From contig JBMNKF010000002.1 of NCBI GenBank assembly GCA_050952065.1, forward strand, positions 309,123 to 373,122: 64,000 nt of DNA, read 5' to 3'. Source of the stretch: Bacillota bacterium (GTDB lineage: Bacteria > Bacillota > Sulfobacillia > Fermentithermobacillales > Fermentithermobacillaceae). The notes under the pieces are model-generated. The model had not been told where the DNA came from. It saw only the letters and a list, made by a program, of their open reading frames with translations, and did not search any database. Each line of letters opens with the position of its first letter. Within the stretch, counting starts at the first letter, position 1. Below, one piece after another: positions 7,798 to 35,569 of the stretch. A program made the position numbers and the translations under genes.

Positions 7798-7874
7798 GCG
7801 CCCGTAGCTCAAATGGACAGAGTGTTGGCCTCCGGAGCCAGAGGTTGCGCGTTCGATTCGCGCCGGGCGCACCA
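7798..7874 (+). tRNA. tRNA-Arg (anticodon CCG)
   Basis: The 77-nt cloverleaf was folded by hand. Acceptor GCGCCCG/CGGGCGC, D-arm GCTC..GAGT, anticodon stem TTGGC/GCCAG with loop CTCCGGA (anticodon CCG), T-arm GCGCG-TTCGATT-CGCGC, encoded ACCA. Confidence 0.95.
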
Positions 7875-18235: not shown

Positions 18236-19726
<1,491 letters not shown>

Positions 19727-22757: not shown

Positions 22758-23096
22758 TAGTGGAAAACTGCATAGGAGGGTCTCGCCGCATGATGCATGG
22801 TGCGTCGGTCTGATCCATCTGTTGCAAAACCTGCAGCCATCCGCCTCGTCCGACGCAAGAAATGTATCGGTCCGCTTCACCCGGTGCAATATCTGCATCT
22901 ATCTACCTAGTCCGACACAATAGATGTATGGGTCCGCTCCGTCCGGTGCAAAACCTGCATCAACCCGCTCCGTCCGACGCAAGAAATGTATCGGTCGGCT
23001 CCATCCGACGCAGAAACTGCAGCAATCCACCTCGTCCGACGCAAGAAATGCATCCATCCATCTCGTACATCACAAAAACTGCATCGCCCCGCTGGA
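22758..23096 (+). repeat. Tandem array A of a 31-nt repeat (8 clear units 22849-23096 plus ~3 degenerate units upstream)
   Basis: Hand-phased units, e.g. TCCGACGCAAGAAATGTATCGGTCCGCTTCA / CCCGGTGCAATATCTGCATCTATCTACCTAG / TCCGACACAATAGATGTATGGGTCCGCTCCG ... The period is exactly 31 from 22818 to 23096. Confidence 0.9.
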
Positions 23097-23136: not shown

Positions 23137-24108
23137 CTAAAGAAACTTGTTTGGATCCATGAGGTACTTTATTGGGACTTCGGCGCTTACGCCGTCCGCA
23201 TATACGAGTATCAGCAAGACCTCGGAAGGAGTGGGATAATCATCCAGCCTGCCTTCGAAGACCTGAATCTCTCCTTCTGCTTGAGGCGTCGGGGCCTCGA
23301 TGGTCCGTTGAGACATGAGTGTTACTTCCTTGACCACCAGCTCCCGGTCTCGTACCTTGAGCGAGGCTCCCTGAAGTCGGTAGTGATAGTGTTCCGGCTT
23401 TGGGTTCTCGTGGACCGTAATGTCAAAAGCGAACCCTTCCTCGGCAGCCCGAATGTCCACCGAGACGGGAGAGACAAGGGCGCTCGCTTCTTGTTTGATG
23501 TGGAGGGAAAATAACTCGGTGGTTCTCATCTCACGTTCATCGGTCATCGTTACGTAGTATTCGTACTGCCCCGTACGATACATCGGTGAGGATTCGGACA
23601 CAACTGATTCTCTCTTCTCTGGAGGCTCTGAATCATTATTGCTGGAATACGCTATCGATACCAGAGGTTCTGGCTGGATGGTATGGTCAAACGTAATCCT
23701 AAACCCGCCTCCGCCTGTGCTTTCAGCGGGATAGGGGGTGAAATCAGAGCCTCCGTGCTCCCTGAGGTACAGGGTGACTGAGGCACCCACCGGATACTCC
23801 CTTACCTGCCAACTGAGGGTTACAGGCTGGAATCCGTTTGAAGGCTCGCCGGGAGTGACGTCCACTTTGGATATCCATCGCGCTTCCTCGCGGAGATTCT
23901 CGACTGTGTTGCCGACCCAGTCAAGTCCATGGTCTAGGGAGTCTCGCAGGTGCGATACCTCTTTGCGGGCTTCGCCAATCGCGGTCGATAGGTCTCCTAT
24001 CCGGGACAGAGCGTATATGTTGAGGCAGATGCTAAGGGCCAAGAGCCCTACCATCAGGAATCTGGACCGTTCCACTCGCCATCCCTCCATAGTGATTGCT
24101 GTCCACAC
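23137..24108 (-). CDS. Hypothetical single-pass membrane protein (N-terminal TM, short coiled-coil, beta-rich extracytoplasmic domain)
   Basis: 323-aa ORF. TM FLMVGLLALSICLNIYAL, then a heptad-like DLSTAIGEARKEVSHLRDSL. No recognisable catalytic motif. The start could also be Met7 (24090). Confidence 0.6.
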   Translation of the reverse strand: MWTAITMEGWRVERSRFLMVGLLALSICLNIYALSRIGDLSTAIGEARKEVSHLRDSLDHGLDWVGNTVENLREEARWISKVDVTPGEPSNGFQPVTLSWQVREYPVGASVTLYLREHGGSDFTPYPAESTGGGGFRITFDHTIQPEPLVSIAYSSNNDSEPPEKRESVVSESSPMYRTGQYEYYVTMTDEREMRTTELFSLHIKQEASALVSPVSVDIRAAEEGFAFDITVHENPKPEHYHYRLQGASLKVRDRELVVKEVTLMSQRTIEAPTPQAEGEIQVFEGRLDDYPTPSEVLLILVYADGVSAEVPIKYLMDPNKFL

Positions 24109-24233: not shown

Positions 24234-24667
24234 CCCGACGCAAGAAATGTATCGGTCCGCTCCACCCGGTGCAAGAACTGCATCCATCTGCCTCGTCCGA
24301 CGCAAAAACTGCATCGGTCCGCTTCACCCGGTGCAATACCTGCATCTATCTACCTAGTCCGCCACAAGAAATGTATGGGTCAACTCCGTCCGACGCAAGA
24401 ACTGCATCCATCTGCCTCGTCCGACGCAAAAACTGCATCGGTCCGCTTCACCCGGTGCAATACCTGCATCTATCTACCTAGTCCGCCACAAGAAATGTAT
24501 GGGTCCGCTCCGTCCGACGCAAAAACTGCATCAATCCGTCTCGCACATTACAAAAACTGCGTCGACCCGCAGCCCGATGCGAAAAATGCGACGAGTCGAG
24601 AGCCCCGACGCAAGAACTGCATCAACCCACTCCCTCCGACGCAAAAACTGCATCCACCCAGACATCC
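24234..24667 (+). repeat. Tandem array B of the same 31-nt repeat (10 clear plus 4 degenerate units) with a 124-nt higher-order structure
   Basis: Units were phased by hand at 24234, 24265, ... 24637. 24296-24357 is identical to 24420-24481 (62/62). 24265-24388 vs 24389-24512 differ at ~5 of 124 positions. Orientation and subfamily order match array A. Confidence 0.92.
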
Positions 24668-24800: not shown

Positions 24801-25541
24801 TTGGGGGAATTTCTATTGGACGAACCTATCCTTCGAACCGTAAACTTAACCAAGTCTTTTCATTTGGGTCAAACAATTTACGCAGTGCAAAACGTCAACA
24901 TGGTCGTAGACAAAGGCGAGTTTGTGGCCATAATGGGCCCATCGGGCAGCGGCAAGAGCACCTTGCTTTCGCTTTTGGGCGGGTTGGATAGGCCGCAAAG
25001 TGGTGATGTGCTCCTTTCGGGCCAGCGCTATTCGACGCTGTCCGAAGGCGGTCTCGCCAGAATCCGAAGGTACCAGGTGGGGTTCGTGTTCCAGTTCTTC
25101 AACTTGATCGCACACCTAACTGCCCTCGAGAACGTGGTTCTACCCATGCGGTTCGGTAAAATGAGCCGACGCGCTATGCTGGCACGAGCCGACCACCTTC
25201 TGGAAACGGTTGGCCTCAGCCATAGGAAGAACCACAAGCCCCTGGAGTTGTCCGGAGGGGAGCAACAGCGGGTCGCCATTGCAAGGGCTTTGGCCAACGA
25301 ACCGGCCATCATATTGGCGGATGAGCCCACAGGCAACCTTGACTCCAAGACATCCCGGGAGATTGGCGAGGTATTCCATAGGCTCAATGAAGAGAACGGT
25401 CAGACCTTTGTGGTCGTTACCCATGACGCCTCACTAAGAAAGTGGGCGCACCGGACCATTTGGATGCTGGATGGACAGATCGAAAAGATTGAACAGGGCG
25501 GGCTCGTTAACCAAGATTTGGGCGACGCCCAGGGAGGCTAG
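24801..25541 (+). CDS. ABC transporter ATP-binding protein, MacB/LolD/FtsE-like (copy 1)
   Basis: Walker [11 protein letters not shown]-loop, signature [15 protein letters not shown], Walker [13 protein letters not shown]-loop VVTHD. TTG start. Confidence 0.9.
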
Positions 25542-27275
25542 ATGATGGCCAAATCGATTCTTCATATCCAGGTGGGCAACTCAATCACGAGGGCTCAGGC
25601 GCTGCAGGTGGGCGATGGCAAGATTACCCCAAAGGCATACGGCCTGTGTCCCACTCCTTCCTTGACCCTAGAAGAAGACAGAACTCAAGGTATCGGCTTT
25701 GCCATCCAACAAATGGAGGAGCGGATGGCAGAGCAGGGCGCCTCTTTGGAACCCCAAGAGATACTGGTTACTTTGAGCGTTGGGGGGGAGCCCAGCGCGG
25801 TATGCGCAGGGGTCGTCAAGGGGATTTCGGGCGAATCGGCCAAGAGAGCTGCCTTGTCCGCAGGTGCCACAGTCACCGATCTCATCTGCATAGATGATGG
25901 GCGGGAAGACTTTCAGCGAGTGTCTGACTTAAGCAGGCAAGACATATCCGTGGTGGTTCTGGCAGGCGGAGTAGATGCAGAAATAATGGAATCGGGAAGT
26001 CACCAACTCCTGAGCATCGCCAAGATACTGGCTCAAGGTCTCCCCAAGAAGCATGGCAGCCAGAAAAAGGTTCCTTTGATCTACGCTGCATCGCTGGACG
26101 CACGGGAAGAAGTCATGAGGATCATGGGCGATGACATCGAGATAATCTGGGCAGACAACGTCCGGTCTAGACTGGAGGAAGAGCATCTGGAGTCAGCCCG
26201 AAACGCTGTGGTGGATGCTTTCGCCCAAAGCGTTGGCTTAGATGGCAGGTTCAGTGGGTTAGGGCGTCTGGGTTCTCCCCAAGTGCTTCCTTCGGGCTAT
26301 GCAAAAGGGATGGGCGTTGAGAGACTCTACAGTGAGAGTAAAGAAAACGTGTTGGGTTTCTCTTTGGATGGAGACTCTGTACAGGTGTTCTCCTATATCG
26401 GAGGAGTCTTCACCCGTACCGTGACATCGATTGATGCAGTGGATTCCCGCAAGGTTGCCAAATGGTTGCCAACGCCGAGCCTCACCGGGAATCTTGAGGA
26501 GATGTTGGCCAACCTCAGACTTCACCCATGGATTGTGCCGGCCGGCTGGGACGAATTAGCGGTTTACCTGGCGTTTTGGAAAGAAGTCATCAGAGAAGGA
26601 ATCGCCGAACACAAGGAAAGCGCCATCGAACTTCGGGGAATCCAAAGACCGAGAAAGATAGATGAGACTTTTGAGGTTAGAGTTTCAGGCGGCGATACCA
26701 TACTCAAGGCCCACGACATACGCAAGGTAGTGGTGACGGGTGTTCTGTCCCACATCCTTTCGGAGAGGGCTCTGCTTTCCCTGATAATGGATGGTGCGAA
26801 CCTCAGCGGCGTCACCGCAATCTATCGAGATCCGTGGGATGTGCTGCCGGTTGTAGGGTCGTTATCCCCGGGCAACGTGAGCATCGAGGATCACCTGAAA
26901 TCCTTGGGGGTTCTGGTGGGACCCGGTCAGGACAGAGACCGAGTTGGCACCAGGTGGGTTTTCTCGGGCACAGGGTCTTCTCTTGAGCCCTTACCTGTGA
27001 GACCCAACGAGATAGTGCCCGTTGATCTGAATGGCGGCGGCGAGATCGACATTGTCTTGGAACCTTCGCGAACCGAAGACCTGGGAAACGGTAAGGGCCA
27101 TAAGGTGTGGGCGAGAGTGGCATCGGGTTTCACCCAAGTCTATCTCGACGGTCGCCCTCGAACCATGATCCGGTCTGTGGAGAGAATTGCTGCTCAAGAT
27201 ATTCTCAAGTGGTATGGAAACTTGGGAGTGTTCCCTCAGGAAGTCCTATCCGCTTGGTCGGGAGGTAGGGCCTGA
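25542..27275 (+). CDS. GlmL/MutL-like actin-fold (ASKHA) protein with degenerate nucleotide-binding motifs (copy 1)
   Basis: 577 aa, clearly paralogous to 32266..34083 (ESAKRAALSAGATVTDLICIDD vs ESAYRAALGAGAIVCDVLSLDD; KVPLIYAASLDAREEV vs KIPLIYAGNVDARDLV). However, the phosphate-1 motif is QVGNSITR instead of DVGSTTTK. The ATG directly abuts the upstream stop. Confidence 0.7.
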   Translation: MMAKSILHIQVGNSITRAQALQVGDGKITPKAYGLCPTPSLTLEEDRTQGIGFAIQQMEERMAEQGASLEPQEILVTLSVGGEPSAVCAGVVKGISGESAKRAALSAGATVTDLICIDDGREDFQRVSDLSRQDISVVVLAGGVDAEIMESGSHQLLSIAKILAQGLPKKHGSQKKVPLIYAASLDAREEVMRIMGDDIEIIWADNVRSRLEEEHLESARNAVVDAFAQSVGLDGRFSGLGRLGSPQVLPSGYAKGMGVERLYSESKENVLGFSLDGDSVQVFSYIGGVFTRTVTSIDAVDSRKVAKWLPTPSLTGNLEEMLANLRLHPWIVPAGWDELAVYLAFWKEVIREGIAEHKESAIELRGIQRPRKIDETFEVRVSGGDTILKAHDIRKVVVTGVLSHILSERALLSLIMDGANLSGVTAIYRDPWDVLPVVGSLSPGNVSIEDHLKSLGVLVGPGQDRDRVGTRWVFSGTGSSLEPLPVRPNEIVPVDLNGGGEIDIVLEPSRTEDLGNGKGHKVWARVASGFTQVYLDGRPRTMIRSVERIAAQDILKWYGNLGVFPQEVLSAWSGGRA

Positions 27276-28426
27276 TGATGTTGTATGCTGTGAGCAAGCC
27301 GAGAGCCATTAGGAACGTAGAGGTTGTGAGGCTTCGTCCTTTCAGTTCAGTGGGGCAAGCGGAGGTGGCTCCGGGCGCAGAAGTAACATGGGATAGCCTT
27401 GTAGGTACTTACTCCTCAAGAAAGAGGATTAGGAGGGTGCGGGTTGAGGCTTCCAATGACACCATGGTCGCCACAGTCCTGGTTCAAGAAGGTCAGCTGG
27501 TGAAACGCGGCGAGGTCTTGGCCTATTATTCTTATCTCTTCGGCCTGGGGTACACAGAGTATGTGTCTCCTTGTGATGGGGAGGTAATGTCTATAAACCC
27601 AGTGATAGGAGCGATTCTCATCAAAGAGTCGCCCATGGAGTTAAGAAGCAACCTCCCAGGCGTTGTGGCCAGGTCCGAAGACGCCATCGGTGTCTGGGTG
27701 AGGTCTTTCGGAGACCTCACAGAGGGCGTCGCAGGCGCCGGTTATGGCCGCTCAGGCATCTTAACTCTGAAGGCGACTCATATCGGTCCCCAGGATCAAG
27801 GCAAAGTCATCGTGGTGGAGCGGTCTCCAACCCAAGAACTCATTGAAGAATGCCTTCGATACCGCGTGGCCGGGCTTGTGGTTGGGAGCATTAGGCAACG
27901 CCTCTTTGAGTGGTACAAGGGGATTGCCCAGTCTCTGGATTGGACCGAGTTCCTAGCGCGGTATTGGGCTAGAGACGCCAAGAAACAAGAGGACGCGCCG
28001 CCTGCCACCGAAATTGTCCCGGCACTGGTGGTGACCGAGGGTTTCGGTGACATTCCCATTAATGCGAAAGCTCAAGAAATGTTGGCAGAGCATGAGGGCG
28101 AGAGGATCTTCATCGACGGGTCTATGGATTGGGCTCAAGAGCCGTGGGTTTTTGCCCCCATCAACCCAGGGCAGCCTTCGGCACGTCATTTGTCGCCGGG
28201 TGCACTTGGGGAGGATCACGGGTTGGGCCGACAACTATCCCAGGTTGTGCCCGGCACCAAAGTCAGGATCCTCGGCATGTCGCGGACGGCCTTGATAGGT
28301 ACTGTGATGGAGATTTCTCCCAATATGGTCCTGGAAAACGGGATAGTGACACCGGGAGCCAAGGTGGTCACTGACGGTGGGGAGACACTCACGGTATCGT
28401 TCCTAAACATCCAGGCCGTCAACTGA
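27275..28426 (+). CDS. Uncharacterised cytoplasmic protein: barrel-sandwich-hybrid (lipoyl-like) domain, central domain, KOW/SH3-like C-terminus (copy 1)
   Basis: 383 aa, no TM or signal peptide. Lipoyl-like halves VLVQEGQLVKRGEVLAYY ... VSPCDGEVMSI. Paralogous to 34085..35509 (ALVVTEGFGDIPINAKAQEMLAEHEGERIFIDGS vs TAVIMEGFGKVPMSQDTWDLLVSLEGKVASIDGT). ATGA overlap with the upstream gene. Confidence 0.6.
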   Translation: MMLYAVSKPRAIRNVEVVRLRPFSSVGQAEVAPGAEVTWDSLVGTYSSRKRIRRVRVEASNDTMVATVLVQEGQLVKRGEVLAYYSYLFGLGYTEYVSPCDGEVMSINPVIGAILIKESPMELRSNLPGVVARSEDAIGVWVRSFGDLTEGVAGAGYGRSGILTLKATHIGPQDQGKVIVVERSPTQELIEECLRYRVAGLVVGSIRQRLFEWYKGIAQSLDWTEFLARYWARDAKKQEDAPPATEIVPALVVTEGFGDIPINAKAQEMLAEHEGERIFIDGSMDWAQEPWVFAPINPGQPSARHLSPGALGEDHGLGRQLSQVVPGTKVRILGMSRTALIGTVMEISPNMVLENGIVTPGAKVVTDGGETLTVSFLNIQAVN

Positions 28427-28606
28427 CACAGGCCATCAATAAAGAAAAGAAGTGTAGATAAGGTTTCGGACGAAACAAGAAAAGAACAGAGATTCTTCAA
28501 GGATCCGAAAGGGCTGAAGGTCAAGGGCTTCGCCAAGTTGGCTGACCTTAGCCTTCTTGTTCTCGTTGGATCCTCTGTTCAGATGCAACCTTGTTCTTGC
28601 TGACCT

Positions 28607-28703
28607 CTTCGTTCCGGTTAGCCACTTCCACCGGCCCTCCGACCACTCTCACGCGATTTTCGTGGTTACCGCTAAGCCCTTCGTTCCGGTTCAACACCTC
28701 CAC
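28607..28703 (+). repeat. Two 25-nt direct repeats inside the only long intergenic gap of the operon
   Basis: CTTCGTTCCGGTTAGCCACTTCCAC (28607-28631) and CTTCGTTCCGGTTCAACACCTCCAC (28679-28703), 21/25 identical, 72 nt apart. Confidence 0.7.
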
Positions 28704-28773
28704 GAGGCGTTGATGGCCCGGCAATTCTGGAAGGGATGCGCTTTCTCGATGACGAAACCACGCTATTGCAGAG

Positions 28774-30288
28774 GTGAATGAGGTGGACCTTGTCCGTCTC
28801 GGATTGAGAAGCGCAAAGAGAAACTGGAGCCGCACCGCCTTGGCTATGACAGCCATGGCACTTGCTGCCATGACGTCAGTGTTCTCAGGAGTTGTTCCCT
28901 TGGGTTATGTCAAGGGGCACGCTCTTGCCGAGCGGCTTTTCGTGGGAGGAGACATTCTCGTTCTCCCCATTGGTGGTCCCGTTGACGCAAGATGGGATAG
29001 TCACGAGGAATCTCAACTATTCTGGAAACCGTGGGAGGGGCGGGATTGGCAATCTTCCGCACTGTACTTCTTGCCCGGTCTAAGAACCAAGGGGTATGTA
29101 TCGAACCGCGAAACATCATGGCGCGCCTTTGACCCGAACCCGGTTATAGATGCGGTTAAGAGGGTTCAAGGGGTCAAGGATGTGGCCCCTTACTACGCTT
29201 TGCCCTGCATCCTGACGGTTGGCGGCCAGAGTTCAGCCGCTGTGCTGCGGGCCTGGGATACGAGCAACAGCGGAGACTACCTGTCCGATTTCGGTCAGGA
29301 GTTCGTGGTTGCAGGAGAGCCTCTGGATGCCTCTTCACCCAAAATGTCTTGCCTGTTTCCGCTTCAGGGCACTTCCCTAGATGCGGTTAACATCAATTCA
29401 GTGGATCCTCTGAGTACCATCCAGATAACTGTGCCGCGATTGACGTATGGGTCTTATTCCGGAGAGGGGCCTATCGGGTTCAAGTGGGACCAGGCCGTAA
29501 CGGACTCTCTGCAAGTGTCAGGCATCTACCAAGTCCAGGTAGGTTTGGCGCCATCCCCTGCAGCCGATTCTCCCAGTGCGCCCACTGAGATGGAGCCTTT
29601 GTATTGGGAGCGTCCTGAGATCATAGTATCTTACGACACTTTCAGGCGGTTTGTATCCTATTCCGAACCTACGCTTGAGTACGCCGATAAACCGGACGAT
29701 TCGGTTGACTTGGAACCGGGGCAGTTTCCTTCGGGTTTCTCGGTGTACCAGGTGGCCATAACTGTGGATCGGATGGCCACAGTCAAGAAAGTAGCCGAAG
29801 ACGTGGCTTTGGCGCTTGGCTCCAGTTTCGCCGTAATCCCCATACCAGAGCTTACGCAAATGAAAGGCAGAGGGGCGCTCATGACCATCGCTGGCCAAGA
29901 CGCTCGAGAGTTCTCCCAACTTCTCTTTTTCACCCTTTCATCAGTCATAGTTGCCGGCACAATCTATGTCATATTGACCCAAGAGCGGCGAAAGATCGGT
30001 CTACTTCGAGTAGTGGGAGCCACCGGCAAAGATATCTTGGCGTATGCTCTGACTTTGTGCGCATATGTGGCTCTTACAGGTTCCGCTATTGGGTTTGGGG
30101 TAGCGAAGATCCTGTCGTTGTTGGCCGTCTTCGCAGCCGATGTGACTTTCTCTCAGTGGGTGGAGCAGACAGTCAAAGACGCTTTGCAAGTCTTCGGACT
30201 GTCTCTTGGAATCCCTTTGGTCTTGGGGCTCGCCATCGGGGTCTGGGCGGCCCGCATTCCCAGTGCGGAGGTGCTAGAACGTGGATGA
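28774..30288 (+). CDS. FtsX/MacB-type ABC permease with a ~340-aa extracytoplasmic domain (copy 1)
   Basis: 504 aa. TM1 near aa 21-44, a long hydrophilic domain, then a three-TM FtsX-like C-terminus (LLFFTLSSVIVAGTIYVILTQERRKIGLLRVVGATGKDIL...). GTG start. Confidence 0.8.
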   Translation: MNEVDLVRLGLRSAKRNWSRTALAMTAMALAAMTSVFSGVVPLGYVKGHALAERLFVGGDILVLPIGGPVDARWDSHEESQLFWKPWEGRDWQSSALYFLPGLRTKGYVSNRETSWRAFDPNPVIDAVKRVQGVKDVAPYYALPCILTVGGQSSAAVLRAWDTSNSGDYLSDFGQEFVVAGEPLDASSPKMSCLFPLQGTSLDAVNINSVDPLSTIQITVPRLTYGSYSGEGPIGFKWDQAVTDSLQVSGIYQVQVGLAPSPAADSPSAPTEMEPLYWERPEIIVSYDTFRRFVSYSEPTLEYADKPDDSVDLEPGQFPSGFSVYQVAITVDRMATVKKVAEDVALALGSSFAVIPIPELTQMKGRGALMTIAGQDAREFSQLLFFTLSSVIVAGTIYVILTQERRKIGLLRVVGATGKDILAYALTLCAYVALTGSAIGFGVAKILSLLAVFAADVTFSQWVEQTVKDALQVFGLSLGIPLVLGLAIGVWAARIPSAEVLERG

Positions 30289-31009
30289 GTGGCGAGGACC
30301 CATACTCAAGTGTCACGAGCTTTCCAGGTTCTATGCGGTCGGAGACGGTTTGTTCGCCCTGTCTGGCGTCGAGATGGAGGTATGGGCAGGGCAGTTCGTG
30401 GTCATCATGGGGCCTTCGGGGTCTGGCAAGAGCACTCTACTGAATATACTGGGTGGCATCGACCGGCCGTCCCACGGCGAAGTGATCCTTTGCGGCCGGA
30501 AGTACTCGAGAATGTCAGAAGATGAATTGGCCATCCTCAGACGCACCCAGGTGGGAATGGTCTTTCAGTTTTTCAACCTTCTCCCCGAACTGACTGCTGC
30601 CGAAAACGTGGGCATTTCCCTGAGACTGGCGGGGGCCCGCGAGTCTGAGACCATGACAAGGGTTACCCAACTCATGGAGGCAGTGGGGCTTGCGGGTAGG
30701 TCCAATCACTATCCCATGGAACTTAGTGGGGGCGAACAGCAGAGAGTCGCCATTGCCAGGGCTTTGGCACCCAAACCTGCCGTTGTGTTGGCCGACGAGC
30801 CCACCGGTAATCTCGATTCCAAAATGTCCAAATCCATCATGGAGCTTTTCGCCAAGTTCAACAGGGAAGAAAAGCAAACCTTCGTAGTGGTGACTCATGA
30901 GCCCGGTTTCCAGGAGTATGCAGACACTGTTATCCACCTGGTAGACGGTGAGATCAAGGAAATGTGCCATGGAGGTCGACGAGTGTCGGGAAAGGAAGTT
31001 CTGTCGTGA
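30281..31009 (+). CDS. ABC transporter ATP-binding protein, MacB/LolD/FtsE-like (copy 2)
   Basis: Walker [10 protein letters not shown], signature [15 protein letters not shown], Walker [13 protein letters not shown]-loop VVTHE. 8-nt overlap with the upstream permease. Confidence 0.9.
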
Positions 31010-32208
31010 GGACAACGATCCGGCCTGCCGTGACATGGTCTTTAGCCGCCAAAATGGTGGTAAGGCGGCTTCGCAGAGATCCTTCCGCCGCCTTGCTGGT
31101 GTCGTTGTCGGTGACTCTGACTGTGGCGCTTTGTGTTTTCATTGTATCTATGGTAACCCTTAGTGGTTGGCGCACCATGGCTAGAACGGAGACAATGGAA
31201 CTTCCGTACGATGCCGTAATCTTGTTTTCGGAGCATCAAGATGCTGTCCGTGCCCAAGACTCGTTGGGCAGATTACGGAATTCATATTCTATCCACAGAT
31301 TTCCTTTCGTAGAAGTTGATACGGAAATCGGTCCGCTCTTTATCGTTGGAATGGAACTCAATCTTCCAGGAGACGTCATCGTGCTGAACGTCCGAGACGC
31401 TGATTTGGTGAGAGAGATGGAGATGGATCCCCGGCGAAAAGGAAGCTTGGACGCGTGGCCGCTGGAATCAGGGATCTCCGTTCAGGGTGCGAGGTTAACA
31501 TGGTCCACGATCTGGTCTTGCCAGGATGTTGACGCGAGCGACGATGTGCTGCGTCGAACCGTGACATCCCTTCCGGTTCCGCCGGGCTGGGCGGTGGTTG
31601 ATACAGAGCGTCTCAACGGTGTGGCCGGGGTCCGAACGGGGCTGGGGCTAGAGTTCGTAGGGGATCCACAGCACATCGACAAACCCAGGGAGCTCTCTGA
31701 TCTCCGGCGCCAATATCCGGATGCGGTGATCTTTGGCCCGTGGTCAGGGGAATCTTTCGTGAGCAAAGAGCTGGTGAGGCCAACGCTTCTGTGGCAAACA
31801 GTCTACTGCCTCGGGGCGCTGACAGGCACAGCGGCCATATCATGTGTGTTGACCGCATCTTTTCTGGGCAGGAAACGGTCGTTGGGAATTCTCAGGGTCT
31901 TGGGCGGGACTAGGGGAGATCTTCTCCGCGTGGTGTTGGTCGAAGCGTTATACTTAGGTGTCTTAGGTGTCCCGCTAGGGTCCGTTGTTGGATTTCTGGT
32001 ATCTCGCTTTTTCTTAGACGCGTGGGTTGTGACTTTCGCTACTGCACTTGTTCCCGTTGGGCTTGGGGTGGCCGCCATCATAGCGGGAGCTTCTCTTCCA
32101 ATACGCTTGGTGAGGAACGCCACCTGTGACCAGTTGCTCAACAACCGGCCCGTTTACGCTATGTCCAATCCCTCGTGCGCCCAGTGTGGTCTGTGCGGCG
32201 GCTTCTAG
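31006..32208 (+). CDS. FtsX/MacB-type ABC permease (copy 2) with a Cys-rich C-terminal tail
   Basis: GTG 31006 overlaps the ATPase stop (GTGA). TM1 (LLVSLSVTLTVALCVFIVSMV), a ~220-aa external domain, and an FtsX-like C-terminus (GRKRSLGILRVLGGTRGDLL...). Ends ..NPSCAQCGLCGGF. Confidence 0.8.
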   Translation: MRTTIRPAVTWSLAAKMVVRRLRRDPSAALLVSLSVTLTVALCVFIVSMVTLSGWRTMARTETMELPYDAVILFSEHQDAVRAQDSLGRLRNSYSIHRFPFVEVDTEIGPLFIVGMELNLPGDVIVLNVRDADLVREMEMDPRRKGSLDAWPLESGISVQGARLTWSTIWSCQDVDASDDVLRRTVTSLPVPPGWAVVDTERLNGVAGVRTGLGLEFVGDPQHIDKPRELSDLRRQYPDAVIFGPWSGESFVSKELVRPTLLWQTVYCLGALTGTAAISCVLTASFLGRKRSLGILRVLGGTRGDLLRVVLVEALYLGVLGVPLGSVVGFLVSRFFLDAWVVTFATALVPVGLGVAAIIAGASLPIRLVRNATCDQLLNNRPVYAMSNPSCAQCGLCGGF

Positions 32209-32265
32209 GTTGCAGAGGGAATTCGTGGGTCTATGGAGAGCGGTTCTTGAGAGGAGGAACGGGGG

Positions 32266-34083
32266 ATGATTGAGAGAATCCTGGCGGCTGACGTCGGAAG
32301 CACTACCACCAAAACTGTTCTGTTTGAGAAGGCGGAGGATGGATGGAGACTCCTGGGAAAGACGGTCGCTCCCACGACGGTGGAGGCTCCCGACTTGGAT
32401 GTGATGATTGGCCTCAGAAATGCAGTGGCAAAACTGGAGAAGCGTGTAGGCAGGCGTCTTCTGGATGGTGTCAGGCTCTTGACACCGGCAAGAGAAGACA
32501 CGGGAATAGACGTTTTCGTGGCCACCTCCAGCGCAGGAGGCGGACTCCAGATGCTCGTAACGGGCCTGATCAATACGATTACAGCCGAGTCTGCTTACAG
32601 GGCTGCCCTAGGGGCCGGCGCCATCGTGTGCGACGTGTTGTCCCTGGATGACAACCGCGCCATTGTTGAGCGTATCGAGTCTATTAAGAGGATCAGACCG
32701 GACATGGTCTTGGTGACCGGAGGTACCGACGGAGGAAATATCTCCGACGTGGCTGCCATTGCCGAGTACCTGGCTATGGCCAATCCTTCGCCGAGGTTCG
32801 GTGAGCATTTCAAGATCCCTCTCATATATGCGGGGAACGTTGACGCCCGTGACTTGGTAACCGAAGTGACAGGCGAGGTCATGGATATTAGTTACACAGA
32901 CAACATCCGGCCGGTACTCGAGAAAGAGGTTCTGACCCCGGCGCGGGAGGAGATCCATCGCCTCTTCTTGGAACATGTGATGATGCAAGCACCCGGGTAC
33001 AAGACGCTCTTGTCCTGGACGGGAGGATACGTCAAGCCTACCCCGGTGGCCGTAGGGGATACACTTCAGAGTCTGTCTGAGACCAGAGGTCACGATGTAC
33101 TTGGAGTGGATATCGGGGGCGCCACCACAGATGTATTTTCAGTGATTGACGGCACATTCCATCGAACTGTGTCGGCTAACCTGGGCATGTCTTACAGCAC
33201 CGGCAATGTGCTCATGGAAGCCGGGATAGAGTCGGTTGTCAGGTGGCTGCCTTGGGCGCCTGACGAGAACATGGTCAGGAACTGGGATTTCAATAAGATG
33301 ATCAGGCCAACCACTTTACCTCAGACCCTTGAAGAACTAATCCTTGAGCAAGCCATAGCCAGAGAAGCCCTGCGCTTATCCTTTGAGCACCACCGTTCAC
33401 TCACGAGAGGGCTCAAGGGCGTTAGGCAAGAGCGCAACGTGGGAGACGTGTTCAACCAGACCGGAACCGGCAATACTCTGGTTAACCGGTTGGCTATAGG
33501 CTTGATGGTCGGATCTGGGGGAGTTCTTTCATACGCCCCAAGGCGCCAGCAAGCTGCCATGATGATGATCGACGCTTTAGAGCCCGAGGGCGTGACCGAT
33601 ATTATGGTCGATAGCCAGTTCTTGTTGCCCCACTTGGGCGCCATTATGGAAGCCGACGCATCTGCCGCCCAGGAGATCTTGGAGACTGAGGCTTTAGTGC
33701 CCCTTGGGACGGTCATCGCGCCCGTTGGTCCGCAGGTTGCCCCTGGAATCGAAATAGCCAAAGTGGAGATCGACGGTGAGGTGCATTGGGTGGTCTCCGG
33801 TGAGCTTCAGGTTGTTCCGCTTTCTGCCGGCCAGAGCGTGACGGTGAACGTTACTCCTAAAAAGGAGTTCACGGTGGGCAAGGCATCGGGGGTCCCGGTC
33901 ACTGCCAGAGCTATGGGAGGGACGGTTGGAATTATCCTGGATGGCCGGGGGCGCCCCATAGCGATGCCCGTGTCTGAAGATGAGCGAATTTCGGCAGTCC
34001 GGAAATGGCTCATGGCTATGGATGTCTATCCAAGCGCAATCTTGGAGTCATTTGCGGATGTCTTGGCCAAGGAGGCGAACTAA
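32266..34083 (+). CDS. GlmL/MutL-like actin-fold (ASKHA) ATPase with intact motifs (copy 2)
   Basis: 605 aa. Phosphate-1 ILAADVGSTTTKTVLF, TGGTDGG, phosphate-2 VLGVDIGGATTDVFSV, adenosine MVGSGGVLS. The N-terminal pattern matches the GlmL/MutL (glutamate mutase L) family as I remember it. Confidence 0.75.
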   Translation: MIERILAADVGSTTTKTVLFEKAEDGWRLLGKTVAPTTVEAPDLDVMIGLRNAVAKLEKRVGRRLLDGVRLLTPAREDTGIDVFVATSSAGGGLQMLVTGLINTITAESAYRAALGAGAIVCDVLSLDDNRAIVERIESIKRIRPDMVLVTGGTDGGNISDVAAIAEYLAMANPSPRFGEHFKIPLIYAGNVDARDLVTEVTGEVMDISYTDNIRPVLEKEVLTPAREEIHRLFLEHVMMQAPGYKTLLSWTGGYVKPTPVAVGDTLQSLSETRGHDVLGVDIGGATTDVFSVIDGTFHRTVSANLGMSYSTGNVLMEAGIESVVRWLPWAPDENMVRNWDFNKMIRPTTLPQTLEELILEQAIAREALRLSFEHHRSLTRGLKGVRQERNVGDVFNQTGTGNTLVNRLAIGLMVGSGGVLSYAPRRQQAAMMMIDALEPEGVTDIMVDSQFLLPHLGAIMEADASAAQEILETEALVPLGTVIAPVGPQVAPGIEIAKVEIDGEVHWVVSGELQVVPLSAGQSVTVNVTPKKEFTVGKASGVPVTARAMGGTVGIILDGRGRPIAMPVSEDERISAVRKWLMAMDVYPSAILESFADVLAKEAN

Positions 34084-34084
34084 C

Positions 34085-35509
34085 ATGGCAGTATCTTGCA
34101 ACATTAGGGTCATCCCCAGGACCCGTCTCAAGAAAGCCCGGAGCCTCTCTGTGCCTGGTGACGTCCTTGTCAAGGTTGGGGATACGGTGGAGCCCGATAC
34201 AGTTCTGGCCAAGACCGATTACGTACGCGGTAACCCGAGGATCGTCGATCTCAATGCCGAACTGCGAATGAAGCTCACGCCCCAAATGGTTGACAAGGTC
34301 ATGCTGAAGAAAGTTGGAGACAGTGTAACGGGTCAGGAGCCAATCGCAAGGTACCAGAAGGGTTTCTGGTCAGAGATAGTCGAGGTCAAAGCTCCCTGCG
34401 ATGGGACTATCGAATACATTTCCCGCACTCAGGGCCGTGTCATTGTGCGTGAAGACCCAAGATCATCAAAACCCCTCTGCATCTGTCCGGCTGCTCAACG
34501 CCTGGGTGTCTGGCCGTGGATGATCCGAATGTTCACCCACGTCAAGGAGGGTGACGTTGTTCACGAGGGCCAAGTGCTGGCGGCTGCCGAGAAAAGCGGT
34601 TTCATCGGCGAGGCAACCATGGATTACGTCTACGCTCCAATGAGCGGGGTGGTCGAGAAGATTTGCACCAAAACCGGGAGTATCACTATAGTCAAGCCCA
34701 TCAAGCCCGCAAGGGTACTGGCCCACATTGCGGGTGTGGTCACCCAAGTGATCCCCTTCGAAGGAGCAGTCATCGAGTCCATGGGGGCTTATCTTGAGGG
34801 CGTGTTTGGGATCGGCGGAGAGAAAGCCGGCGCATTAGTTGTAGCTACCCGGGGGCCGCTAGATGAATTGGACGAAGACGGAGTGGCACGTCTCGGGGAC
34901 CTCGGCGGCAAGATTGTCCTTGCGGGAAGCATGGTCACTTTGGGGGCCCTTCGGAGGCTCAGGGATTCTGGGGCCCTTGGGCTCATAGTCGGCGGCCTCA
35001 ACAACTTGGACTTGGTTCGGTTTCTGGGTAAAGAGATCAATGTTGGGATAACCGGCCACGAAGATGCGGGGTTGACAGCAGTCATAATGGAAGGGTTCGG
35101 GAAGGTTCCCATGAGCCAGGACACCTGGGATCTCTTGGTTTCTCTTGAGGGCAAAGTCGCTTCAATCGATGGGACGACGCAGATACGGGCAGGGGTCATA
35201 CGTCCGCAAATTCTTGTGAGCGAAGGCACTCCGCCTTCTGACCAGAGTGACGCCGACGAGTCAATCGTGGGTGATGTATACGGCGAGGCCCATGAGGCGA
35301 TCCTTCACCCTATGACCAACATTGTTCCCGGCGACCGGGTCAGATGTGTTCGTGCCCCGTACTTCGGACTGTGGGGAGTCGTGCAGGAGGTTCCAGAGGA
35401 GCCCTTGAAGGTCGATTCTGAAGCCATCATGGAGGTTGCCAAAGTGCGGCTAGATAACGGCGAGACCGTCTTGGTCGCAGAAGCCAATCTGGAAGTGTTC
35501 AGGTACTGA
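34085..35509 (+). CDS. Uncharacterised cytoplasmic protein: two barrel-sandwich-hybrid domains, central domain, KOW/SH3-like C-terminus (copy 2)
   Basis: 474 aa from ATG 34085 (AAGGAGG RBS; starts 2 nt after the upstream stop). VLVKVGDTVEPDTVLAKT...VKAPCDGTIEYI and HVKEGDVVHEGQVLAAAE...YAPMSGVVEKI. The C-terminal GDRVRCVRAPYFGLWGVVQEV..VLVAEANLEVF is KOW-like. Confidence 0.6.
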   Translation: MAVSCNIRVIPRTRLKKARSLSVPGDVLVKVGDTVEPDTVLAKTDYVRGNPRIVDLNAELRMKLTPQMVDKVMLKKVGDSVTGQEPIARYQKGFWSEIVEVKAPCDGTIEYISRTQGRVIVREDPRSSKPLCICPAAQRLGVWPWMIRMFTHVKEGDVVHEGQVLAAAEKSGFIGEATMDYVYAPMSGVVEKICTKTGSITIVKPIKPARVLAHIAGVVTQVIPFEGAVIESMGAYLEGVFGIGGEKAGALVVATRGPLDELDEDGVARLGDLGGKIVLAGSMVTLGALRRLRDSGALGLIVGGLNNLDLVRFLGKEINVGITGHEDAGLTAVIMEGFGKVPMSQDTWDLLVSLEGKVASIDGTTQIRAGVIRPQILVSEGTPPSDQSDADESIVGDVYGEAHEAILHPMTNIVPGDRVRCVRAPYFGLWGVVQEVPEEPLKVDSEAIMEVAKVRLDNGETVLVAEANLEVFRY

Positions 35510-35532: not shown

Positions 35533-35569
35533 GGCGGCAAGGCAAAGAACCCTGCCGCCTTTGTCTTTG
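35533..35569 (+). terminator. Rho-independent terminator closing the 8-gene operon
   Basis: Stem GGCGGCA(A)GG / CCTGCCGCC with an 8-nt loop, followed by TTTGTCTTT. Confidence 0.8.

Follow-up and report, generated by a model that had tools for sequence, protein, structure and literature searches.

Type VII ATP-binding cassette (ABC) machines have no transmembrane substrate channel and act by mechanotransmission; those of the MacB, LolCDE and HrtBA type extract substrates from the membrane, and in FtsEX-FtsA an ABC machine of this class goes together with a cytoplasmic actin-fold protein, although ftsA is not encoded together with ftsEX. Here we analyze a 64-kb stretch of contig JBMNKF010000002.1 from a member of the Fermentithermobacillaceae (Bacillota), hereafter the window, in which eight plus-strand open reading frames (ORFs; g1 to g8, positions 24801–35509) encode two ABC ATPases (g1, g5), two FtsX-type permeases (g4, g6), two GlmL/MutL-like proteins of the actin-like ASKHA fold (g2, g7) and two barrel-sandwich proteins (g3, g8). 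We propose that in this operon paralogous copies of a widespread cytoplasmic module have been joined to a type VII ABC machine of the heteromeric kind and that the two are coupled, a reading that we regard as about equally apt to be right or wrong.

The genes are closely packed. The junction of g1 and g2 is abutting, g2 and g3 overlap by 1 nt, g4 and g5 overlap by 8 nt, g5 and g6 overlap as GTGA, and g6 is followed by g7 after 57 nt and g7 by g8 after 1 nt, so that the only long internal gap is the one between g3 and g4 (28427–28773). Beyond g8 lies a terminator-like GC-rich hairpin with a T-rich run (35533–35569, plus strand), read from the sequence and a hairpin scan as the hairpin GGCGGCAAGGCAAAGAACCCTGCCGCC at 35533–35559 followed by the plus-strand tail TTTGTCTTTG; the scan had placed the hairpin on the minus strand. 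The lengths of g6 (400 amino acids, aa), g7 (605 aa) and g8 (474 aa) are the same in independent gene calls on metagenome contigs carrying an identical g7. Much of the original prediction, made from the sequence of this stretch, was borne out: the eight same-strand ORFs are present where it placed them, its protein identities agree with Pfam searches of all eight proteins, the tight or overlapping junctions and the terminator were confirmed by reading the sequence, and its statement that mutase and B12 genes, a solute-binding protein and an anchored membrane fusion protein are all missing from the cluster was upheld. One detail fell, as the g2/g3 junction, given as ATGA, actually reads TGATG.

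Judged from the sequences, g1 and g5 together with g4 and g6 form a type VII ABC machine that is heteromeric in the manner of LolCDE, a new example of an established kind. Both g1 (24801–25541) and g5 (30281–31009) are ATPases of the LolD/MacB/FtsE clade, matching ABC_tran in a Pfam search (1e-35 and 2e-33) and sharing 54% identity (BLASTP), and in both the Walker A, Q-loop, signature (LSGGE in g1), Walker B and H-loop motifs are intact, as had been claimed for the principal motifs of both ATPases. For g1 a start at TTG 24816 is more likely than one at TTG 24801, because GGGGGA lies 8 nt upstream of the former and because it better fits the offset in the g1/g5 alignment. The permeases g4 (28774–30288) and g6 (31006–32208) differ from each other, their similarity in BLASTP being confined to the FtsX domain (PF02687; 34.3 bits, 2.7e-08, in g4 and 32.8 bits, 7.8e-08, in g6, against a cutoff of 25.5). 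Hydropathy predicts transmembrane (TM) segments at residues 23–41, 383–401, about 421–455 and 473–491 of g4, and in g6 a TM1 at 29–47 with TM2–4 from residue 266, giving each permease four TM segments and external domains of about 341 and 218 aa, close to the 340 and 220 aa first suggested. Matches of g4 and g6 in the Protein Data Bank (PDB) are to LolF, YtrF, MacB, HrtB-like and FtsX chains and cover the TM region only.

The comparison with LolCDE can be carried further. Each system combines a LolD-like ATPase with two dissimilar FtsX-type permeases that have four TM segments and an external domain; the NCBIfam model that g1 and g5 match best is LolD (DarD, FtsE and MacB being the other top matches), and a profile of g4 orthologues weakly matches the periplasmic domain of LolE (E 0.012–0.06). 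The operon differs from LolCDE in that all of these NCBIfam matches stay below the equivalog cutoffs (for LolD, 249.6 bits in g1 and 228.8 in g5 against 307.75), and in its additional ATPase gene, the Cys-rich tail of one permease and four genes for cytoplasmic partners; moreover, the genus name Fermentithermobacillus and the placement in the Bacillota suggest a lineage without outer-membrane lipoprotein sorting. The likeness to FtsEX-FtsA, which consists in a type VII ABC machine with a cytoplasmic actin-fold protein and in the presence of FtsA among the structural matches of g7, is likewise partial: g7 falls in the GlmL/hydantoinase-A branch of the fold and not in the FtsA branch, its gene is co-operonic with the ABC genes, the external domains are much larger than that of FtsX, and g1 and g5 score 209.3 and 209.7 bits against an FtsE cutoff of 264.85. 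That the assembly acts on the envelope in an FtsEX-FtsA-like way is something that we infer. A known anti-phage defence system was rejected, since PADLOC gave generic ABC/AAA matches to g1 and g5 alone and nothing for the other six proteins.

MacAB-TolC offers a third point of comparison, as it shares with the operon a MacB-like TM fold and ATPase, and as the barrel-sandwich domain of g3 and g8 also occurs in MacA. On this basis g3 and g8 might be divergent MacA/HlyD-type membrane fusion proteins of an ordinary MacAB-like efflux pump, an idea favored by faint matches to BSH_RND, BSH_YknX and RND_mfp and by Foldseek matches of g8, within its barrel-sandwich domain, to the adaptors BesA and ZneB. 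Against this, g3 and g8 have no signal peptide or membrane anchor (hydropathy finds no N-terminal TM or signal-like segment in g2, g3, g7 or g8), their TIGR01730 score is 15 bits where the cutoff is 94.9, and the structural similarity is confined to a single domain (TM-score of at most 0.17) with no alpha-hairpin. On these grounds the adaptor reading was rejected, and we consider it the least credible of all the explanations weighed here, the more so as members of the family accompany an ASKHA gene in archaea and also in lineages where ABC genes are absent. The two proteins are cytoplasmic and devoid of the other adaptor domains, and Pfam MacB_PCD was not detected in the cluster proteins.

On the cytoplasmic side of the operon, the intact pair is g7 and g8. 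The product of g7 (32266–34083) is a GlmL/MutL-like ASKHA ATPase that matches PF13941 (MutL) with 380 bits (1.6e-113) and is 52–55% identical to homologues in WOR-3, Armatimonadota, Nitrospirota and other groups, and the phosphate-1, phosphate-2 and adenosine motifs of the fold are intact in it and in all of its orthologues (DVGSTTTK, GGTDGG, DIGGATTD, GSGG). It has no PDB relative by sequence. Its AlphaFold2 (AF2) model, with a pLDDT of 85.5, comprises the ASKHA core, a well-defined C-terminal beta domain (residues 477–559) and two helices predicted to form a hairpin. The closest folds in Foldseek are the hydantoinase-A-type subunits of acetophenone carboxylase, N-methylhydantoinase and acetone carboxylase (E 2.5e-11 to 9.4e-08), followed by FtsA, PilM, glycerol kinase, Hsp70 and B12 reactivases, with TM-scores of about 0.3 throughout.

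The ASKHA fold is shared with GlmL/MutL of the glutamate mutase operon and with the reactivases EutA and DdrA, and PF13941 is common to g2, g7 and GlmL. It is therefore natural to ask whether g2 and g7 are true GlmL-type reactivases or chaperones of a B12 mutase encoded elsewhere, with the ABC genes adjacent by chance; both proteins do match PF13941, and relatives of g7 are automatically annotated in public records as 'glutamate mutase L' or 'methylaspartate mutase'. The scores, however, fall far short of the GlmL equivalog NF040745 (225.4 bits for g7 and 63.1 for g2 against a cutoff of 475) and short of the family model TIGR01319 (177.3 and 48.5 against 204.05), g7-type proteins exceed GlmL by 130 aa and have the extra C-terminal beta domain, and their constant neighbor is a barrel/KOW gene and not a mutase. 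The roughly 10 kb around the cluster contain no mutase or B12 gene, and neither a mutase nor a B12-binding gene turned up in the flanks or in the related loci annotated with Pfam. We reject the reactivase explanation on scores, length and neighborhood and hold it to be very improbable. Because mutase neighbors are lacking and the scores are below cutoff, the mutase names borne by this MutL-like subfamily of about 600 aa are probably an over-propagated misannotation.

The partner of g7, g8 (34085–35509), is a long-form protein predicted to contain two barrel-sandwich domains, a PA-like domain and a KOW domain. Its Pfam matches are faint for RnfC_N and Biotin_lipoyl and are joined by one to KOW; together with the weak barrel matches of g3 they agree with the earlier description of two paralogous soluble barrel-sandwich proteins, the KOW-like end being detected in g8. 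Like g7, it has no PDB relative by sequence, and its AF2 model (pLDDT 88.4) finds only domain-level matches in the PDB, namely the sandwich-barrel motifs of Thermotoga maritima NusG domain II and of RNA polymerase Si3, the barrel-sandwich domain of the two adaptors mentioned above, the PA-like domains of aminopeptidases and ZNRF3, and the KOW domains of Spt5 and ribosomal proteins. Among 8,000 scored candidates 1,495 were homologues of g8, drawn from Bacillota, Chloroflexota, WOR-3, NC10, Muiribacteriota, Thermoplasmata, Bathyarchaeota and others, and none of them has a functional name; the few source names that exist are all 'hypothetical protein' except for one 'glycine cleavage H protein'. 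A profile of the barrel protein run against 1.84 billion representatives retrieved 1,202 clusters (50% identity) at E ≤ 1e-30. The family occurs in a short form of about 375 aa and a long form of about 460 aa, into which a second barrel-sandwich segment is inserted, and it strongly keeps the glycine-rich motifs GIFGIGGE, TEGFG, TQIRAGVxRPE and PYFG and the invariant residues E336, R373 and R420. There is no lysine among the invariant or near-invariant columns of 50 family members, and a role as a biotin or lipoyl carrier was rejected because the modifiable hairpin-tip lysine is not conserved.

The enzyme-like glycine-rich motifs and invariant residues of the barrel protein, together with the catalytic nature of the hydantoinase-A-type subunits of ATP-dependent carboxylases and lactamases that are the nearest structural relatives of g7, are what would favor a make-and-export scheme, in which g7 and g8 would form an ATP-dependent enzyme that activates or modifies a membrane-bound or peptide substrate on the inner side of the membrane and the membrane proteins of the cluster (FtsX/ABC here, or the four membrane proteins M1–M4 described below) extract or release the product. 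The ability of MacB/LolCDE/HrtBA-type machines to pull substrates from the membrane fits such a scheme. The resemblance to the hydantoinase-A-type subunits is limited, in that a barrel-sandwich/KOW protein stands in place of the HyuB-type partner of the known subunits, which is absent. Two further points tell against the scheme: no conserved substrate gene or precursor peptide was found in the cluster, and g2 and g3 have been retained despite the loss of their motifs. On balance we think it quite improbable.

The distribution of the pair places the operon in a much wider setting. We collected 79 genome loci with the barrel-protein profile, and species matches number at least 574; related loci are labelled L001 onward. 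A MutL-like gene lies directly upstream on the same strand for 77 of 92 barrel genes, and the pair is present in many bacterial phyla and several archaeal ones, so that the GlmL-like and barrel/KOW genes constitute a widespread two-gene module, mostly without ABC genes. In one protein (P0156, 995 aa) a MutL-like ATPase (residues 12–485) is fused to a barrel/KOW protein (residues 743–994), a single example that is possibly an artefact of gene calling. Across phyla the ATPase keeps 50–55% identity and the barrel protein 36–42%. This high conservation points to a basic cellular job, and since the pair is found in archaea and in diderm bacteria that job is not bound to one type of envelope. A 372-aa neighbor in L007 was tried as a hidden barrel protein and is not one.

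Outside the operon the pair has membrane protein neighbors of a different kind. We named the recurrent ones sA (a small soluble protein), sB (a small two-TM protein), M1 (DUF6754) and M2–M4 (further membrane proteins). The sA gene is near the pair in 40 of the 79 loci and sB in 21, at least two of M1–M4 lie within 5 kb in 28, and counted one by one over the loci gathered, clusters hold M1 in 30 cases, M2 in 28, M3 in 26 and M4 in 24. In many phyla the gene order is sB-sA-MutL-BSH-M1-M2-M3-M4, where BSH denotes the barrel-sandwich gene; in Bathyarchaeota it is sA-MutL-BSH-M1-M2-M3-M4; and in Bacillota, including Symbiobacterium thermophilum, it is sB-M1-M2-M3-M4-MutL-BSH(long)-sA-MutL-BSH(short). 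Examples of such clusters outside the window are L010 (5689–12421), L030 (4360–15220) and L072 (7316–14480). Neither sA, sB nor M2–M4 has a Pfam or NCBIfam match above threshold, and M1 has only its DUF6754 label; M1 and M3 have no PDB relatives by sequence, and hhalign gave probabilities of at most 1.7% for homology among M1–M4 or to FtsX. Judged by the positive-inside rule, M1 probably has its soluble domain in the cytoplasm, whereas M3 probably has its own on the outside.

These DUF6754-linked clusters, an uncharacterized class defined in the present analysis, are the closest relatives of the operon on its cytoplasmic side: g7 and g8 are clear family members, and a long and a short pair together are also typical of Bacillota. 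The window differs from them in having no DUF6754, M2–M4, sA or sB in cis (profile searches of the 64 kb, first with a three-sequence sA profile and then with larger profiles, found none of the six) and in carrying FtsX-ABC-FtsX and an extra ATPase instead. In the Bacillota loci with M1–M4 (L027, L028, L030, L032, L041) these genes lie directly upstream of the long-form pair, which is the position that FtsX-ABC-FtsX occupies in the window. The pair may be the cytoplasmic engine of an unrecognized class of membrane machine spread across bacteria and archaea, in which it normally works with DUF6754 and the three other membrane proteins; in the Fermentithermobacillaceae, extra copies would then have been rewired to a LolCDE-like machine by way of the Cys-rich tail of g6. 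We offer this tentatively, as somewhat more apt to be wrong than right. The DUF6754-linked machine itself may be a transporter or a transmembrane coupler driven by the actin-fold ATPase.

The association of the pair with FtsX and a LolD-like ABC gene is narrow in its distribution and, where it occurs, strict. Among the 79 loci the two adjoin the pair only in L018, L020 and L022, with an FtsX fragment at a contig end in L027, all four being Bacillota metagenome-assembled genomes (MAGs). A reverse search with a g4 profile gave 33 species, one MAG each, all of them Fermentithermobacillaceae or unclassified Bacillota/Eubacteriales. The order g4-g5-g6-g7-g8 is collinear in 27 of the 33 and cut by contig ends in four more, while of the remaining two one has g7-g8 just upstream of g4-g6 and the other has only g4 and g6; this holds although g4 identity goes down to 30%. 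The genes g1-g2-g3 are also upstream in at least nine of the 33. Intergenic distances, which are estimates (over 28–32 species for g4–g5, g6–g7, g7–g8 and g2–g3), are tiny: −8 nt for g4–g5, kept in 29 of 32 species, with medians of 16 nt for g6–g7, 1 nt for g7–g8 and 12 nt for g1–g2, and −1 nt for g2–g3. Subgroups of g4 mirror those of g7 and g8, and pairwise distances of permeases and pair are correlated (r 0.74–0.84). M2-M3-M4 was seen near an FtsX-linked cluster once in the 33 loci, in L108 (17668–19457), about 2 kb downstream and on the opposite strand.

The usual pairs have not been given up in these lineages (L025, L026). In Ca. Fermentithermobacillus carboniphilus a solitary pair (L017) and a tandem double pair (L026) exist beside the FtsX-linked set (L105), which makes three sets in all, and in L027 the FtsX-linked pair stands beside a full typical cluster. 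As usual pairs are kept alongside, and as an ABC-less pair occupies the same guaB-pur site in L013 and L014, the FtsX-linked pair is an additional paralogue and not a replacement. The expectation that the ABC and GlmL/barrel genes are co-conserved in related genomes thus held; the proposal that the GlmL-like and barrel proteins are partners of the ABC machine stands as far as this co-conservation goes, but they are not special to this operon. No paper dealing with the pair, with DUF6754 or with this gene combination came to light, which agrees with the earlier statement that no system of this composition has been described.

The second pair differs markedly from the first. The product of g2 (25542–27275) is a degenerate GlmL/MutL-like ASKHA protein that matches PF13941 with only 122 bits and is 26% identical to g7 (BLASTP, E 7.5e-49), and the phosphate-1, phosphate-2 and adenosine motifs are degenerate in it and in all 11 of its orthologues: in this group DxGSTTTK has become HxDxGxxxT (with Q instead of D in the window copy), DIGGATTD has become SLDGDxVQ, GSGG has become T-G, and GGTDGG is interrupted by a 4-aa insert. 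Its partner g3 (27275–28426), a degenerate short-form barrel-sandwich/KOW protein with weak Pfam matches to Biotin_lipoyl_2 and NqrA_N, is 26% identical to g8 (BLASTP, E 3.5e-15) and lacks the family-invariant GIFGIGGE, TQIRAG and PYFG. Having lost these conserved motifs, g2 and g3 are probably a non-catalytic pair, and g2 probably does not hydrolyze ATP. Both are nearer to the usual short pair than to g7/g8 (the best match of g3 is a Symbiobacterium short-form BSH, with 32% identity and 101 bits against 65 bits to g8, and g2 most resembles the MutL of that short pair), so the operon keeps the long-pair-plus-short-pair layout of Bacillota. Two copies of each component are indeed present, as the original prediction had it, but they are not a simple symmetric duplication.

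The long gap downstream of g3, also pointed out at the outset, can now be given an origin. In most relatives a 659-aa gene with HTH_31 and TPR_12 domains sits between g3 and g4, and the estimated median g3–g4 spacing over 12 loci is 2,262 nt; this HTH(XRE)-TPR gene is lost in the window and in L001, and a 53-nt remnant in the window gap matches L096. We found no credible ORF, conserved small ORF or precursor peptide in 28427–28773, which by these comparisons is a deletion scar of the regulator gene.

The best candidate for a contact between the two halves is the C-terminal cytoplasmic tail of g6, NATCDQLLNNRPVYAMSNPSCAQCGLCGGF (32116–32205, plus strand), which is nearly invariant among g6 orthologues, being lost only in L097 and L001 and cut by the contig end in L096. 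In g8, residues C105, C194 and C421 are present in at least 90% of FtsX-linked copies, as against 4–12% of unlinked ones, and changes in the two proteins go together: the CxxCxxC tail is lost together with g8 C194S in L097 and L001, and the tail motif NATC becomes NATT together with g8 C105V in L120, L122 and L124. This suggests a shared metal site or a docking of the tail peptide.

Such paired changes bear on an alternative to coupling, namely that the ABC machine and the ASKHA/barrel pair are merely co-regulated and carry out separate steps of one response, for example to membrane or peptide stress, with no physical contact. The HTH-TPR regulator found in most clusters fits a regulon-type unit, and the pair functions without ABC genes in most lineages and is solitary, though of the same subgroup, in close relatives. 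Co-regulation would not, however, readily account for the covarying cysteines, for strict collinearity across 27 to 31 species with junctions that overlap or measure about 16 nt, for the direct coupling of the ATPase gene g1 to the degenerate g2, or for the ties of the pair to membrane proteins elsewhere. We therefore consider it unlikely.

Under the coupled reading that we prefer, the permeases g4 and g6 would work with the ATPase g5, and g1 would be a second ATPase. The module, a GlmL-like ASKHA ATPase with a barrel-sandwich/PA-like/KOW protein, would be a cytoplasmic ATP-dependent partner of membrane complexes, and the intact pair g7/g8 would dock on the cytoplasmic face of the g4/g6 heterodimer, most likely by the binding of the Cys-rich tail of g6 to g8. 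The motif-dead g2 and g3, translationally coupled to g1, may serve as a non-catalytic scaffold or regulatory partner. As type VII machines have no substrate channel, coupling would most likely be conformational: the ABC cycle would gate the ASKHA ATPase, or the reverse, and an event at the large external domains would thereby be linked to an ATP-dependent step in the cytoplasm.

Several points weigh against this reading. ABC genes are missing from the neighborhood of most pair-family members, and a pair of the same subgroup stands alone in the close relatives Ca. F. carboniphilus (L017, 59% identity) and L013. The correlated distances and mirrored subgroups could stem from shared vertical descent, and the cysteine co-variation amounts to two evolutionary events only. 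ABC machines have ATPases of their own, and no reason for a second kind of ATPase is evident. Finally, all of the relatives are MAGs.

The surroundings of the operon are unremarkable in composition. GC content across the cluster shows no anomaly, so it is not an obvious recent island, and a promoter scan gave sites no more numerous than expected by chance. Flanking genes are guaB, one of ATP-grasp type, one resembling a deacetylase, and the pur operon. The frame from guaB (18236–19696, minus strand) to the pur operon (36236 onward) is the one that carries an ABC-less pair in L013 and L014, and in the window it has about 13 kb extra, consisting of the ATP-grasp gene, the deacetylase-like gene, repeat arrays and g1–g6. 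The repeats are 31-nt units with the core CGCAARAAMTGCATC, which has 12 matches where 0.02 are expected and is essentially absent from 134 related loci; they form two arrays of the same orientation (22805–23093 and 24235–24654) that bracket a minus-strand ORF (23137–24108, 323 aa) with no Pfam or PADLOC match. A tRNA gene at 7798–7871 is the sole Rfam match in the window at the gathering threshold.

Should the pair indeed be the engine of a wider class of membrane machine that has here been rewired to a LolCDE-like one, the operon would represent the first case of ABC mechanotransmission tied firmly to an actin-fold ATPase that is not FtsA. The pair belongs to a family that is widespread in bacteria and archaea and carries neither a functional annotation nor a solved structure, and its attachment here to a well-understood membrane machine makes a stronger case that it works at the membrane. 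Its ABC cycle is defined, one permease offers a candidate docking tail and a dead copy occurs naturally, which makes the operon a tractable case in which to study the family, and the finding also flags a probable systematic misannotation in public genomes.

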